DNA of 62,286 nucleotides, filler included, from Circinaria calcarea (taxonomy: Eukaryota), in the NCBI GenBank assembly GCA_051942165.1. It is 11 parts of 11 records of this genome, joined end to end, with 100 filler letters (N's around TTAATTAATTAA, not from the genome) between each part and the next. Parts side by side here need not be neighbours in the genome. Positions count along the whole stretch, not along the records: positions 22,726 to 28,302 come from JAVECS010001860.1; 10 more parts are not named here. One strand, written 5' to 3'. The notes under the pieces are model-generated. The model saw nothing but the letters and a program-made list of their open reading frames with translations, did no database searches and had not been told where the DNA came from. A program made the position numbers and the translations under genes. Shown in pieces: positions 5,587 to 28,608 of the stretch (positions are counted from its first letter, which is position 1; the number at the start of each line of letters is the position of its first letter).

Positions 5587-5686
5587 NNNNNNNNNNNNNN
5601 NNNNNNNNNNNNNNNNNNNNNNNNNNNNNNTTAATTAATTAANNNNNNNNNNNNNNNNNNNNNNNNNNNNNNNNNNNNNNNNNNNN
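5587..5686. other. Artificial contig spacer (first of 10 identical ones)
   Basis: N44-TTAATTAATTAA-N44 (stops in all frames). Repeated at 11268, 16949, 22626, 28303, 33979, 39645, 45310, 50971 and 56629; contig lengths never increase from 5586 to 5558. Confidence 0.99.
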
Positions 5687-11267: not shown

Positions 11268-12783
11268 NNNNNNNNNNNNNNNNNNNNNNNNNNNNNNNNN
11301 NNNNNNNNNNNTTAATTAATTAANNNNNNNNNNNNNNNNNNNNNNNNNNNNNNNNNNNNNNNNNNNNAGATAGCGAAACTCACAAGAAATCCAAACCGGC
11401 CAAACTGCCAATGGCAATATTTAATTGGGTGCCCGTAAGGCCAAAGTACCTACCGCCAAACATCTTGCCAAGATATCCTTATGGTTTGGCACTCGAGGTA
11501 ATGCAAAAATAGAGGCAATGCTTGCCCGAAAGCAAAAGAAATAGAAATCAGAAGCAAAGGTCGGTTCGGGTTTGACACCTGAATGATGATGTACACAAAA
11601 GTTGAGATCATCACCGAAGAAGCGCCTCGGTCCTTAGCTTCGTGTTTGGTGGAGATGGACTGATCGCTGGCTGGTCTGCGGTTCCTTAGCTCGCAGGTAC
11701 ACTGTAACACCACACCACTTGGATATTATTCTAGCCCTTAGATCCCGCTCGGGGTTTGATTACCGCTCCAAATCCCGCTCTGCTTTGAACTCCAATTCAT
11801 CCTGAATTCTGCGCGCAACCTGTAAAGACGGACCATGTGGTGGTCAGTGAGGGGATATGATGCAGGGCTTCGAGGCCGTCGTCCTTCAACAGCTGTATGG
11901 TGCGCCAACTTGCGACCATTCATGATAGCGGGTGGTCCGCTGCTGGCTACTGCCGATATCGTGTGTAGGGTACTGTCATGAATTATGGGGAGCGACAGTT
12001 CAACGACGTCCTGGTTCGCTGACATGAATACTTTTGATTGCGATGCAGCACAGCTAATGCGCCCGTGAGTTGTGATTATCGGTCCCATAACGACAACAGT
12101 ATCTTATAGGATCGCCTTCTCTAGTCATCATCACGCACACTCGGAATTCCGATCGTCCTTATGGAGTATCTGCTGCTTTCCTTATCAGCGTTGCGATCAA
12201 GACCAGAACAAAATTGTGAAGAGCTGGAAACCTCCTAGGCACTCGCCTAGCCTACCAACCGGTGCACTTGCCCCCTTTGCTTCGCCTATGCATGTATATC
12301 TTATTAGTGGCAACAACGATAGTAGATGAACGTGTTGACTGAGATTCCCCGTCATCTTGACCATTGATGAATCCCACCGTGAAGCTGATGATCCCCCGTA
12401 TGGAAACAAGTAGATCCACTGGCGTATCGGAGAAAGGAAGCCAGAGTTACTCGCTTGTTGCATTTGTTCATACTGTTAGCTTTCACAGGATCCAAGCTCC
12501 AAGCTCCAAAGGTCTGAGTTTGAGTGCATTTCATTTTGTGCTATCTGTTCAGTCTGTCTCTCTATACAAGCCTAAACAACAAGACATTTGCATTCAGCCG
12601 CAACAATTGGCCAATCTCGGGTACTTATGCTACCTTCAGATCCACCAAAGATACCGATGCGTTGGCGAACTAAGGTACATGGTGATGGTTTTCTCGGCTG
12701 TTGAAAAGAGAATTGACATGGAGAAACCAGTGGATAAGGTCGTTACCTTGTCAGCATCGAGTCGAAGCCGTTGCCTGCCAAAT

Positions 12784-16948: not shown

Positions 16949-17048
16949 NNNNNNNNNNNNNNNNNNNNNNNNNNNNNNNNNNNNNNNNNNNNTTAATTAA
17001 TTAANNNNNNNNNNNNNNNNNNNNNNNNNNNNNNNNNNNNNNNNNNNN

Positions 17049-21321: not shown

Positions 21322-22772
21322 TTATTCCTTGCTAAAGTATCATTTGTGGAAGGTCTTGTCCTTAGTCTCGGGTATGGTCTGCTGGATTTGACCATTTTGT
21401 GTAGGCCTATTTAATAGGCTTGCTACACTTACAAGATTCCAAGGCACTCAATAAGATACCTGGGTACTTCAAGGGTACTACGAAATTGCTACGTAAAGTA
21501 TGTAGACCTTGTCTATACCAACAACTACCACAGCTGCATCACACAATCCCCACGTATCCCCGACATGCTCCTCACGCATCATCATCTGTCTTTCCCCCTT
21601 TTCCCATCCCCTCTTCCAAAAAAAAATCCTTCATCAGTCATGTCTTAACTTCTCTATCTTCCCACATCTTCCCGAAAATTTCCCAAACACTACCTTCGTC
21701 GTTAAATGTACGCTTTTTTCAACCCGATGCATTTTCCCAAGGAGACACAAAGACGGTTCTACACATTATCGACAGGTAAAACGTCAGAGGAGGACCGAAG
21801 GCGTGGTGCTGTGTTTCTCCTGCGAAGTGAGGACCGGCCGGGGGTATATATAGAGGACTGGGTGGGCTGGCTGGGGCTTCGTTACCATAGTCTGTAAATC
21901 GGAAACCCCCCCCCCCCAGTAACATCCTGTAGGGCTCGATGAAACTGTGATTCGAAACCCCCGTTTTGAGTGATATTATGTAGCAAGTTGCGGGGGGTTT
22001 GGTTCTGATGGACTTCGGAAGGATGAACTTTTCCGAACGCTGGGGCTTATGGTAAGGCTTGGGGTAGAATGTCGGTCTGGCGTACGTAGTTCTGAATGGA
22101 TCTAGCTGTGTTCGAGAAGAGTCCGGTTAGGTCTGAGGTTTGGAAAATGGGATAATGGGGGGGGGGGGAGGTGTTATCAGTATTATGGTTGTTATATTGT
22201 TCTTGGGGAAAGGACTGGCGGTTTAGGAGAGCATCTTTTACTGGTAAAGGAAGGGACCGTAGTCCAGCGGACTGACTGGAACCTTTGGTTTAAATCAACG
22301 AGGTGTAACCGAGTTGATCGTATGATGCACTTGCGTGACATATTCCGTGTACAATCGCCTCTGTTGAGATATCAAATGTTGAGATTACCTTATGCTTTGC
22401 AATTAAAGTCTTTAATTGAATTTAGAGATAGCGGTTCAAGCCGTCTGTCCTCCGGAAGCACTATGGTTTGAAATTTGATTGAAGAGCTACCCTAGTTGCA
22501 TCCTTCTTAACTCAAACGTGTAACCTGGCAGCGTTTCCCTTCTTTCATCGTTTTTAGGATCGCCGTAATGTTATTCGGCGCCTCTATTCGGTCAAGATGT
22601 CCAGCAATCGCCCGCCAGATATAGANNNNNNNNNNNNNNNNNNNNNNNNNNNNNNNNNNNNNNNNNNNNTTAATTAATTAANNNNNNNNNNNNNNNNNNN
22701 NNNNNNNNNNNNNNNNNNNNNNNNNGGTGGCGATGATAAGATGCCCCACTTCGTCCTTTCCCTATCAGATGT

Positions 22773-22780
22773 ATATAAAT
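22773..22780 (+). promoter_or_regulatory. TATA box of the micro-exon gene
   Basis: TATATAAA about 70 nt upstream of ATG 22850, followed by a C/A-rich leader. Confidence 0.6.
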
Positions 22781-22849
22781 CCAGGACCTCCAACCCTCTC
22801 TGCAACAGCACTAAACTTCCCAGCTCAACTCAAGCTCTTATTCGGCAGC

Positions 22850-24495
22850 ATGTCCAATTACGACGACAACAGTGTTTGCACTCAGTGATTTCCTAAGTAA
22901 CTTCCGTCAAGGCTGACCAGATTAGGGCCGGGCCGGTGGATACGGTGATGATAGTATGGTGTGCTTAGCTGTCTTTTGCTCGACTTGGTTCGTCAGCCGA
23001 AGCTGACAACCACAGGGCCGCGGTGGTGGATATGGCGACGACAGCATTGGCGTAAGTGGTAACGCTGAGTCCGTCGCCCCTCAGCTTGTTGTTGATCGAC
23101 AGTTTAGTCTGGCCAGACTAACTCCGGAATGGGAAGAGATTCGTATGACCGCGTACGCTTATGCTATCCTAAAAGATACTGTACTACCGATACTGACACT
23201 GTCAAGTCTCGCAATACCGGCTTCGGTATGGGCTCCGACGTAACTGAGGTGGGAGTCAAAAGGTATGCTCGATTGAAGTCTGTCAGGTTAACGCAAAGAT
23301 AGTCTCGCAACATGGGTGGACTAAGTGGAGGCGATTCCTACGGTGTAACGCACGCCGCGGCCCTTTACACCCCAAAGCTTATCTAATCTTATGCAGCCCT
23401 CTGGTGAGGCCGGTATCGGTAGTGACACTTCTGGGGTAGGTCGCAATCGGACTCGGGAGCACATATCCAGCTACTGATATCTAATACAGTCTACAGGCTT
23501 AGGGCGCAGCAATCCTTACAAGGTGTGTACACGTATCTCAGCACGATTCTGTTCAGAGGCTGACATCTGGGACAGTCGTCCGGCCAAGGCCAAGATGATG
23601 ACAGTTATCGGGTGCGTGCTTAGTGGCTGGAACTTTTTCCTCAACACTGAACATGTTGTAGTCATCTGGACATACTGGTGGATCCGGCATACGCGATGAC
23701 TCATACGGGGTACGTTCATATACATTTGATATCTCGATAACTAACCAACAAGGTCAAGTCTTCTGGTCGAACTGGCGAATCGGGTATGGGTGGCGACTTA
23801 TACCGAGCACGTCTCTACTTGTCTCCCGTATTTAGCTAGCAACTGACAGGACAAGGCTTCTGGACGAACTGACGAGTCTGGAATGGGCGGTAACTCTTAC
23901 GGGGTAAGCTTAGTACCCCAGATAGTGTCCGTTAAGATAGCTGACGTGGTGTAGTCGTCTGGCCGCTCTGGCATTGGGGGTGATGACAGCTATGATGTAT
24001 GGATCATGTCGACGTCTTCGCTCCCTAGCTAATTTTGTACCAGTCTGGCAACGCTAGGGGTAGTACAGGACGAGGTAGCGAATATGGCGTAAGTTTAGGG
24101 GCGCAGAATGTCGGACTTTCTGTTATACTGATTCCCTTTCAGTCTGGCAATACAAGCGGAGGTGGACTTGGTACGAGTGATAACACATATTCCGATAACG
24201 CCAAATACGGCTCAGGGACTACAAGTGGCGCCGGTTACGGCAACAAGTCGGACAAGGCCGGCGACAAGTCCTCCAAGGGTGGTGAGTGATAAACTTGCCG
24301 AGTGACGGCATAGAGTTTCTGAGCTAACGTTAAGTCAACCAAGACTCGACCTCCGGCAAACTCATGGAGAAGGTAGGCAGCATGTTCAAGAACGAGAAAA
24401 TGAAGGAGCAAGGTCATGAAAAGCGTGCTCAAGCTGGATACGGAAATGATGGCTCTGAGGGGAACTACGGCGGTACTGACCAGAATAACTATTGA
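22850..24495 (+). CDS. 16-exon Gly/Ser/Asp-rich hydrophilin-like repeat protein (about 280 aa), micro-exon gene
   Basis: Exons 22850-22873, 22926-22958, 23016-23051, 23108-23152, 23207-23239 (or 23248), 23303-23344, 23397-23435, 23490-23522, 23576-23611, 23662-23709, 23759-23806, 23856-23903, 23955-23996, 24044-24088, 24143-24281, 24344-24495. Introns are 47-63 nt with GT (one GC) donors, branch-like motifs and AG. The spliced frame is stop-free and ends DSTSGKLMEKVGSMFKNEKMKEQGHEKRAQAGYG...NNY*. Confidence 0.88.
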
Positions 24496-25792
24496 GTTAT
24501 TGTAAGTTTGGGGAGCATTAGATAGAGCGGCTGCGGCATGAACGAGATATCTCCGCTCTATTCATTAAATCTTTCACCTCGTGCCGGGAAATTTTTGAGG
24601 AAGCTCCGTGTAAATGATTTTCAATTTTATGAATGGTGCATGCTTCGTAGCGCAATCAGCACAATCACAAATTGGTCCTTGGCCCTGTCTACGTTTTTGA
24701 TTTTGCAAAATAGTCCGAGTCTAAGAATGTTGCCTAGGCATACTCTTATTACTTCGCACACGGTTGACCAAAAAATTGGCAAACCCGCATTACCCCTGAG
24801 GCGAGCTTCCAACATTGTTTTTCACCATAACAGTATCAGATTTACACACTATCTCGCATATAAATCTGATATTATTATGGCTAACAATCGTCCTGTTACT
24901 CCTGTCATGGAATTTCACGAAAAGCAGAAGCATCATCCTACTCCTACTAAAGCGAAAATCAAGGCGCATGCGAATAAATGGAAGCGAAAGGCATTCCGTA
25001 TGCAAAACGAGACATTTTCGAGTATTTCGGCGTGAGTGAGCGCTCTGGTTATAGAATGCTCAAAGGCCGCGAATCACGTCGAAAGCATCAAATCCATGAA
25101 ATGCGTGGTCGACATGGACTCATCACCGGAGAACAAATGGCTGAAATGGAGAAAGCGCCTGAAATGGAAGGCCTTACAACGCGTGCTCTCACATGGGAAC
25201 AGCTTGATCTCGAAGCAAATGTCGAAGCATCCGGAATGACGACCCAACATGCCGTGGGCACTATGCATTATCACAAATACATTGCTTGCAAGAAAGGGTG
25301 GGTCAATGCTTCTACGGCTGAGCATAGAGTTGAATGGGCTACGAGAATGCTGCCAAAATACCCCAATCCGATGATTGGAAGCGTATACGATTCAGCGACG
25401 AAGTGCATTTTGGCTGGAGTCCACAAGGCAAGTTACGTGTTATACGTAAGCCAGGTACACGATACTGCAACGGCTGCCTACGGAAAACGATAAGCCTAAG
25501 GCTAAAAACGAAGAACGATTTCACTGTTTCGCCGCAGTAGGCCACAATCTCAAATCGGACATCTACTTCTACGGCATACCTTCGAATACGTATGGAAAAA
25601 TTACGCTAGGAGGGTATAAGAATCAGATACTAGAACCTATAGTTAAGCCGTGGCTGAAAGCAGGCGAGGACTTCGTTTTAGAAGAAGACGGCAACTCAGA
25701 GCATAGAACGGAGAAGTCGAATATTGTACGGAAATAAAAGAAAGAAAATGGCCTGAAATCCTATTTCAATTATTATAATTCCCCGGATCTTT

Positions 25793-26124
25793 CGAAAGGG
25801 TACTAGGATAGGCTAGGCTTGTATAAGGGATAAAGTCACTCCGCGGTGCACGATTACCTGGAACGTAATGGGTATCGATTATTATTCTAGTTGTTGGTGT
25901 CTATAAGCATGCTATTCTAAAGAGTGAGAACAGTCTGCTTACACAATACTCTTGTACTCGTGGCTCCCACTGATTCTTGTGGGAGTTCTGGGAACACCCG
26001 GAACATATCACGTGTCCTGCTTCATTACTCCTTCTGCCAAGTCCTGAGAGCACCGGGAGCACCCGGCTTCTTGTTTCTCCGTTCCGGCACTTGGTTGGCT
26101 AAGGTATGGCGTGGCGCCATAACA
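25793..26124 (-). mobile_element. Solo LTR (332 bp) with 5-bp TSD
   Basis: TCTTT at 25788-25792 and 26125-26129. The minus strand reads TGTTATGG...CCCTTTCG (TG...CA with one terminal substitution); no ORF. Orientation is uncertain. Confidence 0.7.
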
Positions 26125-26137
26125 TCTTTCTCCTATT

Positions 26138-26841
26138 CCGGCCGGTGTTTCTTGTGATGGACCACTCGGAAGCCTTCACGTGGTCATTCACGAGAAGGAG
26201 TAGGTTCGATTCCTACGGCCAACATCTACTACTCTTTTACATCACTACCTTGGCTCGGGGGTGGCTGGCAGCACTCCACAAGTGACTCGACCACAACAGA
26301 CTGATTCCGGACCTGGATCAGAGACTTGTATAGAGTTTTGAGTATCAATCTCAAGGCCAACGACCTTCCGTAAGTGGCTATGATCTTACGTGAGGGGCTA
26401 TGTCGCTACGAGCAGGTACGCGTTTATAGTCACCTGTGACTCGAAGGTCTGTTAGGGTAGTGAAAGGTTTCGTCAATTCTACTTGCTGACGTATTCACCA
26501 CTTCGTGAGGTTATCCTCTGGCATAGGCTTCCTCCCTTCGGTCTGTGGTCTAGGACGGTGGTGAAGGCTCTTACGCGTTATAGCATACTAGGAAGGTCAA
26601 GACGTAATAGTTATATGCTTAATACAGGCTGGAGGGCTTATTGACTGACTGTAGGCCCGCTGGGTCGATCAGTTCGATTGGGTTAAACTTTGATTTGGCT
26701 GAGGATTGGATTTTGATTTGGCTGGGTTGAGCCTCTGTTTGGCTGAATTGGCTGAAATTTGCTTGGGTTGATATCATTGTAATATTATTCTAGAGTAACC
26801 GCCTGCATGGGTCCTGGTGGCCTGTATAAGGTCTATGAACA

Positions 26842-26876
<35 letters not shown>
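26138..26876 (+). mobile_element. tRNA-related SINE-like non-autonomous retroposon (about 740 bp) with (TAC)12 tail and 12-bp TSD
   Basis: CTTTCTCCTATT at 26126-26137 and 26877-26888; T-arm/B-box GTAGG-TTCGATT-CCTAC at 26200-26216; TAC tail 26842-26877; no ORF. Confidence 0.82.
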
Positions 26877-26879
<3 letters not shown>

Positions 26880-27469
26880 TCTCCTATTGAAAATTGCTGG
26901 CAACCACCGAAGCGACACCTCAAGAAATACCCGCATTGGGACGACGCGACTACGAAGCAGTTGATACACGATGGGTGGGCAAATGTATCGCAGAAATTTA
27001 TTAATAAAAGGGTGTTATCGATGCCAGAACGATTGCAGGTGGTTATTGATGGTAATGTCAAAATAACGGGTTGTTAGATTATAGCTTTAAACTACACTTA
27101 TTTCTAGATAATAGACAGTTCCCCATCATTTACTATGTGAAATAATAGTAGAATAGTGGAGAGTTGTTGAGGAATTTCGAATTTGGAGGTAATGTGGGGT
27201 TGCTATTTTCCTCGTCAACCGTGTGCCTCATTCCGGTACTCTGTGGTGGTCGCTTTCGCCAAGACATAGACGAAGATGAGCTTTGAACCCTCGAATCAAC
27301 GACAAGTCACATGGTTATTCTATTACTCTTTTCCTCCCGAATCCCTCCTTGTCTTCCTCGCATCTCTCTGTCTTGCAGATTCGACTGCACCAAGCCCAAT
27401 TGAACCAGCATGTAAAATCAACTATACTTGCCTCAGCGCCCCATCTTACAATCTCGCTATTCCCTACCA

Positions 27470-28048
27470 ATGATGGATCCATCCCAGCGCAACTCAGGAG
27501 CCCTCATCGGTATGGTCTATTCCCATCTTCCGCCCTTGTCATTCGACACCAGTCCGCCAACGATGTCTAGAGCAAGCCAATGCCAACGTTGCCCAGCTCC
27601 TCCGGCGTTTCGAGAACATCATCGCCCTTGCTCCGGTAGCGTTCCTTCGTTCGGTGACCAACCGATTTCTTGCCTGATAACTAACCGGTTTTTTGCCGCT
27701 CAGGTGAACGGTCATGACCGGAGTACGACGGCGGTCGAGGTCTATCAGATGGAAATCGAGACGGCCGCATTGGTAGGCCCTATGTCCCTTTTTGCTCCTC
27801 CCGATCCTTGCACGCCCCCCTCAGTCGCCATCTTTTTGGCCGGTTCGACATCAGCAATACAACGACAGGTGCGCTACTTACCAAGATAGATCCGGGCCGC
27901 CGAAGACATCCTCTCGCTCACGCGGTCACTTAAGGAAATGTGGTTGTTCGGGCAACTGGATACGATCGGGGAGAGTAAAGCGAAAGCCGAAACTGAACGG
28001 CATGCGAAGGCGGTCGCAGAAGGGTTGAGGAGGATCGCGGGGAAGTAA
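27470..28048 (+). CDS. MED22: Mediator subunit Med22 (Srb6/Surf5 family), 4 exons
   Basis: Spliced 27470-27509, 27571-27635, 27704-27772, 27890-28048: ...VAQLLRRFENIIALAP...QMEIETAALIRAAEDILSLTRSLKEMWLFGQL... Confidence 0.9.
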
Positions 28049-28608
28049 GGAGATGTACTGGAACTCATGGAGAACGCTTGGGGAATTGGTGCAAGTTGAC
28101 AATAGGAAGAAGACCAAGGGTAGGAATCTGATCCTCATAGGAACTCCGGAAGGATATGTTAAACAACGAGATCTATTGCTTTGCCACGTCTGGGTAGATC
28201 GAGATGTAAAGGATACAGTTTCTTTGCCTCTTAGATATGATTCGACCTGCTCTAATATTTTATAATACTTGTAAATAGTATCCTCACACCCCCTTCCCCC
28301 TCNNNNNNNNNNNNNNNNNNNNNNNNNNNNNNNNNNNNNNNNNNNNTTAATTAATTAANNNNNNNNNNNNNNNNNNNNNNNNNNNNNNNNNNNNNNNNNN
28401 NNGATTTTAAGGTTGTAGGTTGTAGGTTGTAGATTTGGGATTAAGTTTAAACCATGTTTTTTTTTCAAAAAAAAAGAAAGACGGAACGTGTTAGGACAGG
28501 AAGCCCGTGGGAAGTCCGTGGGAAGTCCATCGGGAGAGGAAAAAAAAAAAGGAATGCAGGAAATTCCCAAGTCACGCGGTGGGTGCTGAGGGGAGGAGGA
28601 GGGGTGCT

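Follow-up and report, generated by a model that had tools for sequence, protein, structure and literature searches.

We analyzed a 62,286-nt window of DNA from the lichen-forming fungus Circinaria calcarea (GenBank assembly GCA_051942165.1) and describe here a highly split gene at positions 22850 to 24495 on the plus strand. The locus is nearly empty in a listing of stop-to-stop open reading frames (ORFs), and 16 exons emerge once short introns are removed. A script check of the coordinates gave a coding sequence of 843 nt, made up of 280 codons and one terminal stop, in agreement with an earlier note on this DNA that had read a stop-free spliced protein of about 280 amino acids (aa) at this place. 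Exons 2 to 14 are micro-exons of 33 to 48 nt, with 5 of the 13 no longer than 36 nt. All of them are multiples of three with phase-0 introns at both ends, and together they make up 528 of the 843 nt, or 63% of the coding sequence. Introns 1 to 14 are in phase 0, as the note had also stated, and intron 15 is in phase 1. Each micro-exon encodes a single Gly/Ser/Asp-rich repeat, the variant previously listed for it, with exactly one Tyr in 11 of the 13, and removal of any micro-exon keeps the frame.

The 15 introns are 47 to 63 nt long, and 12 of them carry a CTRAY branch motif 9 to 16 nt before the acceptor. Fourteen have GT donors and are of the GT-AG type; intron 11 starts with GC (GCACGT) and is the single GC-AG intron. 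The G+C content is 54.6% in the exons and 46.6% in the introns.

A stop-free spliced path is no evidence in itself, because under loose rules between 2,216,648 and 171,691,296 stop-free GT-AG paths cross the locus, and unguided optimization for such paths led to a wrong 13-exon model. Under strict splice rules there were no stop-free paths, owing to the GC donor and to weak branch sites. We used a chain detector that scores successive units of AG, repeat exon, and GT spaced 40 to 90 nt apart. The detector found a chain of 9 units at the locus, broken at the GC donor, with none on the opposite strand and a maximum of 2 in window tiles not overlapping the locus. The regular chain exceeds chance, and RNA joints add support. 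Tandem Repeats Finder detected no DNA-level array at the locus, its sole find being a 21-nt repeat in exon 15.

RNA evidence came from contigs of a close relative in two biocrust metatranscriptome runs (X2 and X3) of one study. One DNA run and the two metatranscriptome runs contain parts of this relative, and none of them has the window's exact sequence. The contigs were placed on positions 22750 to 24650, are 90 to 99% like the window, and cover it from 22797, with 15 to 16 further loosely matching letters before that. RNA joints were found at 8 of the 15 predicted introns: those at introns 1, 2, 3, and 15 occur in both runs, those at introns 9 and 12 in X3 only, and those at introns 5 and 14 in X2 only. 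Loose ends back two more introns. At intron 4, a 12-letter end past 23152 is identical to the start of exon 5, and at intron 6 there is a weak 9-letter end. The contigs link exons in consecutive order (1-2-3-4, 4-5 through the loose end, 9-10, 12-13, and 14-15-16), apart from one X3 contig that joins exon 10 straight to exon 12. This is the sole skip seen, and the form lacking exon 11 reads through to give 264 aa. These results show that the gene is real and is spliced as predicted at most junctions in the relative, with splicing that appears to be mostly constitutive apart from exon 11 and some intron retention.

The 16-exon layout of the earlier splice model stands with two amendments: the donor of intron 11 is GC, and in the relative's RNA the donor of intron 5 lies 9 nt downstream (23249). 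The latter adds three codons and gives a 283-aa form, and both forms of exon 5 are in frame. The proposal of 2^13 combinatorial isoforms found no support in the RNA contigs, which join consecutive exons and show one skip only, that of the exon with the GC donor. One X3 contig (record 9) joins exon 7 (23436) to the 5' untranslated region (22797), going back 640 positions with 16 foreign letters between; we took this join to be an assembly chimera and did not use it as evidence.

Table 1. Features of the repeat gene and its surroundings, in positions of the whole window
Feature	Positions	Strand	Length (nt)	Evidence or remark
Piece of the window that holds the gene	22726-28302		5577	124 nt upstream of ATG
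TATA-like box	22772-22779	+		about 70 nt upstream of ATG; putative
Exon 1: start codon and conserved family N terminus	22850-22873	+	24	joint 22873->22926 in X2, X3
Micro-exon 2 (phase 0-0)	22926-22958	+	33	joints on both sides in X2, X3
Micro-exon 3	23016-23051	+	36	joints on both sides in X2, X3; 69% nt identity to exon 2
Micro-exon 4	23108-23152	+	45	joint 23051->23108; 12-letter loose end after 23152 in two X2 contigs
Micro-exon 5	23207-23239	+	33 (42 if end is 23248)	joint 23248->23303 after cut shift, X2 only
Micro-exon 6	23303-23344	+	42	joint into 23303; one X2 contig continues through intron 6 to 23390 (retained or unspliced)
Micro-exon 7	23397-23435	+	39	weak: X3 9-letter loose end before 23400 equals end of exon 6; in annotated P0001
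Micro-exon 8	23490-23522	+	33	in annotated P0001; no RNA joint
Micro-exon 9	23576-23611	+	36	joint 23608->23662 with 3 replaced letters, X3
Micro-exon 10	23662-23709	+	48	joints on both sides, X3 record 10
Micro-exon 11, followed by GC donor	23759-23806	+	48	skipped by X3 joint 23709->23857; omitted from P0001
Micro-exon 12	23856-23903	+	48	joints on both sides in X3; 73% nt identity to exon 11
Micro-exon 13	23955-23996	+	42	joint 23902->23957; following intron 13 retained in X2 record 7 and X3 record 10
Micro-exon 14	24044-24088	+	45	joint 24088->24146 with 3 replaced letters, X2
Exon 15: one Gly-rich unit ending GYGNK	24143-24281	+	139	GYGNK unit occurs 2-3 times in relatives
Tandem repeat in exon 15	24238-24278		21 (unit)	2 copies, 80% matches; in Lys/Asp-rich linker before the C-terminal module
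Exon 16: C-terminal module, tail, terminal Tyr	24344-24495	+	152 incl. stop	joint 24281->24344 in X2, X3
Two overlapping downstream ORFs	24978-25737	+		
First downstream ORF	24978-25493	+		weak match to HTH_Tnp_Tc3_2 (PF01498)
Med22 homologue	27710-28042	+		broken by a stop or intron in that frame
Linkers	5587-5686, 11268-11367, 16949-17048, 22626-22725, 28303-28402, and five more			pieces on either side not shown to be neighbors

The expectation that gene predictors would miss or truncate this gene was borne out. The best protein match comes from a metagenome-assembled genome (MAG) of Circinaria calcarea, and that public annotation (P0001) is a partial protein of 263 aa, in which exons 3 to 6 are read through out of frame, exon 11 is missing, and exons 7 to 10 and 12 to 16 are recovered.

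The 280-aa protein contains 26.4% Gly, no Cys, and no Trp, with a grand average of hydropathy (GRAVY) of -1.285 and an isoelectric point of 4.79. It has 3 exact SYG motifs, 10 YG, and 18 Tyr residues and lacks the DPR tripeptide. Hydropathy over 19 residues peaks at -0.18, with a mean of -1.34 in the first windows; since no 19-residue window exceeds the peak value, we conclude that the protein lacks a signal peptide and any membrane segment. This negative was read from hydropathy windows, in which no hydrophobic segment fits a signal peptide; no dedicated signal-peptide predictor was run. The protein is predicted to be cytosolic. It is acidic and extremely hydrophilic, with a high content of Gly, Ser, Asp, and Tyr. 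The hydrophilin-like composition proposed for it was confirmed: hydrophilins are given numerically as having more than 6% Gly and a hydrophilicity index above 1.0 (accessible text of PMC11277543), and the values found here, 26.4% Gly and a GRAVY of -1.285, fall on the hydrophilin side of both. Hydrophilins are also induced under water deficit; what was seen here is the presence of the relative's transcript contigs in biocrust metatranscriptomes.

We aligned the C-terminal module from 35 proteins (alignment A2). Eight positions are invariant, and a count from the alignment showed a terminal Tyr in 29 of the 35 modules. AlphaFold2 predicted two helices, at residues 2 to 13 and 17 to 32, with a predicted local distance difference test score (pLDDT) of 81 to 89 over the first 30 residues. 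The CsbD family (PF05532) gave weak matches in 11 of the 35 modules (best E, 0.0037) and none in the window's own module. The module core GKLMEK, searched for in full texts, turned up in no paper. The family thus shares a conserved C terminus that is predicted to form a helical hairpin and weakly resembles CsbD.

Of 1.84 billion representatives searched with the 49-aa product of exon 16, only 27 matched at E <= 1e-3. Many of these matches carry nonsense N termini, as expected if predictors fail upstream of the module. Every close member that has a name comes from a MAG of a lichen-forming fungus (Circinaria, Blastenia, Caloplaca, Variospora, or Calogaya). Scanning metagenome contigs for the pattern left 80 loci, of which 31 are contigs of 1.0 to 1.6 kb with an uninterrupted full ORF of 238 to 444 aa. 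These 31 ORFs hold the family N terminus, many repeats with SYG-like ends, one to three GYGNK units, and the C-terminal module. The N-terminal start encoded by exon 1 is likewise present in P0002, P0163, L007, and L001. A search with one of these ORFs (L036) added Aureobasidium, Cryomyces antarcticus, Elasticomyces, Parastagonospora, Endocarpon pusillum, and Candelina, and the named members also include many Teloschistaceae. Source labels on members include "Stress protein DDR48" (UniRef; P0169, Aureobasidium vineae) and "YjbJ (UPF0337)" (JGI; P0189). Neither a LEA model nor any other Pfam family matched exon 15 or exon 16. By their sequences, these proteins are a widespread Ascomycete family of hydrophilic SYG-repeat proteins that is unnamed in Pfam; it is already in public annotations, mostly as "hypothetical protein."

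Four pairs of near-identical mRNA-like contigs (L075/L078, L037/L047, L018/L027, and L015/L025) differ by in-frame whole repeats of 19 to 35 aa. Variation between strains, collapse during assembly, or in-frame splicing inside the repeat exon could account for these differences. In five contigs (L060, L065, L074, L075, and L078), the ORFs mix DPR-type repeats with the family N terminus, the GYGNK unit, and the C-terminal module; the DPR-type and SYG-type families therefore appear to share parts, and the five contigs look like modular mixing of two fungal stress-protein families. By eye, an N-terminal segment of the DprB-type proteins P0054, P0049, and P0110 resembles the core of the C-terminal module.

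Orthologues were recognized by position. In the window and in L001, L002, L005, L006, L007, L008, L026, and L052, the repeat gene is followed on the same strand by Med22, at a distance of 0.65 to 1.6 kb in the loci other than the window, and 9 of the 38 protein matches are annotated as fusions with Med22; these loci are therefore positional orthologues. The number of upstream exons is not invariant among them. L026 has its repeats, GYGNK units, and module all in one 226-codon open frame; L001, L002, L005, and L006 have 5 repeat exons of 75 to 123 nt with introns of 45 to 54 nt; L007 has 7 exons of 33 to 60 nt; and the window has 13 micro-exons. We also took a census of layouts in 38 loci, those with 700 nt or more of upstream sequence after mRNA-like ones were set aside. 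Of these, 5 have four or more repeat exons in a chain, and 13 have a long repeat exon that runs on into the module without a break; the other 20 have a short terminal ORF without a chain, several of them (L013, L019, and L003) with a long repeat exon in another frame.

Within the L001 group, neighboring introns are 94 to 100% identical and neighboring exons 93 to 99% identical. The doubled unit differs between loci that are otherwise near-identical: it is a 45-nt intron pair in L001 and a 48-nt pair in L005 and L006, with the doubling about 1,050 to 430 nt upstream of the match. Such a pattern marks recent unequal exchange of exon-plus-intron units, and the differences among L001, L005, and L006 suggest ongoing unequal crossing-over or concerted evolution. 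In the window, introns 10 and 11 agree at 36 of 49 letters (200 shuffles gave a mean of 26.2, a standard deviation of 2.4, and a maximum of 34), and exons 10 to 12 are 67 to 73% identical to one another. Mean identity over all units is 0.54 between exons (shuffles, 0.49) and 0.56 between introns (shuffles, 0.51). These means are only slightly above the shuffles: the window's units are mostly old, with just units 10 to 12 still alike. A single letter separates the GC donor of intron 11 from the GT donor of intron 10, its sister.

Because the orthologue layouts vary and neighboring introns are identical, we infer that the array grew by tandem duplication of exon-plus-intron units. Exon gain and loss, which had been put forward as one source of variation, fits both the differing exon numbers of the Med22-adjacent orthologues and the duplicated units of the L001 group. 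Duplication of a unit bounded by phase-0 introns makes all units symmetric, so no selection for skipping is needed. The first introns of the repeat region may be either ancestral, with loss elsewhere, or a lineage-specific gain.

The surroundings of the gene are limited to its own piece, because the window consists of pieces of about 5.6 kb joined by ten N44-TTAATTAATTAA-N44 linkers. The PF01498 match of the first downstream ORF, a Tc1/mariner transposase domain, has an E value of 0.0032 and 18.2 bits, below the cut-off of 31.5. A decayed transposon of the Tc1/mariner type was probably inserted between the repeat gene and Med22. A scan for bacterial promoters and terminators, which is not applicable to a fungus, found nothing.

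We compared the gene with known systems. The identifying feature of DDR48 is its SYG repeats, with 15 in H. capsulatum and 36 in S. cerevisiae, and the protein is associated with oxidative and antifungal stress and with stress granules (accessible part of PMC8617954). Like DDR48 of S. cerevisiae, C. albicans, and H. capsulatum as portrayed there, the window protein is a low-complexity, hydrophilic protein of roughly 300 aa with several SYG-type repeats. Multiple S-Y-G repeats of this type are present, but its 3 exact SYG are far below the quoted 15 to 36. Neither a C-terminal hairpin nor a micro-exon layout is mentioned for DDR48 in the same part of that paper. An atlas cluster labeled "Stress protein DDR48" is a weak neighbor (score, 0.84) and serves as a lead only.

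Schistosome micro-exon genes (MEGs) have exons of 36 bp or less, their products are secreted and host-exposed, skipping variants are documented, and MEG-3 shows exon duplication (PMC8293314, as far as its available text goes). The window gene resembles them in having 528 of its 843 coding nt in short, symmetric, droppable exons flanked by longer terminal exons. Unlike theirs, its exons are 33 to 48 nt, with 5 of 13 at or below 36 nt, its product has no signal peptide, and its skipping amounts to one event in one contig. The same available text describes MEGs as restricted to schistosomes, and the likeness is therefore one of convergent layout only. The parallel with MEGs drawn in the earlier note concerns the layout of short symmetric exons only: the protein is without a signal peptide, and no sequence relation to MEGs was sought.

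The DPR dehydrin-like proteins have a repeated 23-aa domain with a DPR motif, and DprA, DprB, and AbDhn1 to AbDhn3 are hydrophilic, Gly/Ser/Thr-rich ascomycete repeat proteins with stress roles (PMC3103405 and PMC3788798, parts available). The window protein is likewise a hydrophilic repeat protein of an ascomycete. AbDhn2 of Alternaria has short introns near both ends, and a 159-bp intron is alternatively spliced to give two in-frame isoforms (PMC3788798, same part); DprA and DprB localize to the cytosol and peroxisomes (PMC3103405, same part). We rejected membership in this family because the model protein has no DPR motif, and A. fumigatus DprB (P0054) has no C-terminal module. With CsbD/YjbJ proteins (UPF0337, PF05532), the module has a Gly-Lys-rich consensus in common, and with its two predicted helices it would also share a short helical hairpin. 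It differs in that the matches are weak (best E, 0.0037), with none for the window module and no structural match, and in that the hairpin here is confined to the final 30-odd residues of a long protein of repeats. Fibrillar collagen genes of animals are also arrays of short phase-0 exons that each encode whole peptide repeats, and they are thought to have grown by exon duplication; they differ in kingdom, protein, and repeat. For fungi, the accessible text of PMC11121469 states that functional microexons were undescribed in filamentous species before 2024, and the parts of the fungal literature available to us report single microexons in Trichoderma Xlr2, in Coprinopsis, and in P450 genes. 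Among the titles and abstract openings of the literature found, no array of this kind was described for fungi.

Based on these results, we propose, with a probability of about 0.7, that the locus is an expressed lichen-fungus gene for a disordered SYG-repeat protein of stress type, whose array arose by duplication of exons together with their introns and whose splicing is mostly constitutive. The repeat array would have expanded by tandem duplication and unequal exchange of exon-plus-intron units, with phase and splice signals kept. The donor of exon 11 would have mutated from GT to GC, and exon 11 is skipped in the one transcript contig that covers it. The protein would act as a stress protectant of the hydrophilin/DDR48 type. 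Its Tyr-, Asp-, and Gly-bearing repeats could provide multivalent weak contacts that allow gel or condensate formation, and the repeats may shield proteins or membranes on drying or under oxidative stress. The sole structured handle would be the C-terminal hairpin, which would offer a defined interaction surface. A role in stress, desiccation, or condensates is how we read the composition and the family. Within the first reading of this locus, the gene itself, its mis-annotation, its hydrophilin composition, and its variable exon number stand, and the combinatorial isoforms are unsupported beyond the one skip.

Several observations weigh against this proposal. The RNA contigs all derive from a relative in a mixed community, and none comes from the Circinaria calcarea window itself. 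Introns 7 and 8 have no joint; RNA cover is absent there and at the 3' end beyond 24462, and this is uninformative either way. Inclusion of exon 11 was never seen in RNA, with one contig covering the place. Intron 13 is retained in both of the contigs that cover it, a retention that gives a stop in the window, and intron 6 is retained in one X2 contig; unspliced precursors are expected because the libraries were depleted of ribosomal RNA. For the C-terminal module of the window, no Pfam family was found at E <= 1 or E <= 5, a sequence profile search of the PDB gave 0 hits, and Foldseek against the PDB gave none at E <= 0.001 and one unrelated row at E 9.5. The kinship with yeast DDR48 was drawn from source labels and the SYG motif, not from alignment, and the protein is presumably disordered, judged by its composition.

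We regard as unlikely the broader proposal that the gene is a fungal counterpart of the MEGs, in which the repeat number of a stress-protective disordered protein is set by unequal unit exchange over generations and, within the cell, by skipping of micro-exons with weak donors, exon 11 among them, or by retention of in-frame introns. If this is true, protein length and Tyr valency would follow the hydration or stress state. We consider it quite improbable that the 13 symmetric exons are regulated combinatorial cassettes whose skipping tunes length and Tyr number by hydration state. Each micro-exon can indeed be removed in frame, the joint of exon 10 to exon 12 is present in RNA and its 264-aa product reads through, and AbDhn2, of a related class, yields two in-frame isoforms from its 159-bp intron (available part of PMC3788798). 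However, every other RNA joint links neighboring exons in order, and the exon that was skipped carries a GC donor that arose by mutation, so that a weak or dying exon fits as well as regulation does. The contigs cannot reveal isoform ratios because they come from a relative in a mixed community. In addition, a single long exon contains the repeats in 13 of the 80 loci and leaves no room for skipping. Fungi mainly define introns, and the other event seen was retention (introns 6 and 13).

We think it very unlikely that the product is a secreted or cell-wall glycine-rich structural protein. UniRef labels several of the matches to a DPR-type query as "Cell surface protein," and the composition is rich in Gly and Ser. 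The N terminus is not hydrophobic, however (maximum, -0.18; first windows, -1.34 on average), and there is no Cys; the labeled proteins are DprB-like and lack the C-terminal module, and DprA and DprB themselves are found in the cytosol and peroxisomes (available part of PMC3103405). The least probable alternative, that the micro-exon array is decaying, nonfunctional, or over-fitted and just exons 15 and 16 matter, could draw on the millions of stop-free paths under loose rules, on intron retention, and on an exon 11 that appears unused, but it conflicts with RNA joints that coincide with the predicted ones, with a repeat type conserved in full-length ORFs of dozens of relatives, with frame and composition kept in 13 of 13 exons, and with a chain of 9 at the locus against a maximum of 2 in the non-overlapping window tiles.

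The expressed SYG-repeat gene with a duplicated exon-plus-intron array is a well-supported oddity of gene structure for which a stress role, suggested by sequence, is plausible. Filamentous ascomycete genes are usually intron-poor, and for this reason 13 consecutive micro-exons of one repeat each are an unusual natural case. Arrays of one repeat per exon and micro-exon genes are already known in animals (MEGs; accessible part of PMC8293314); in fungi the micro-exon layout is rare. The gene informs how exon-plus-intron units duplicate and how introns persist in or spread through repeats. It also shows annotation pipelines failing, with a partial, mis-framed protein here and a Med22 fusion in 9 of 38 relatives. 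Some orthologues have just one repeat exon and others have arrays whose neighboring introns are identical, a range that makes them useful for studying unit duplication, intron spread, and annotation failure. The finding defines an unnamed SYG-repeat family with a conserved, predicted C-terminal hairpin. Because its members are transcribed in biocrust and occur in rock-inhabiting and lichen fungi, the family is a candidate for work on desiccation tolerance.

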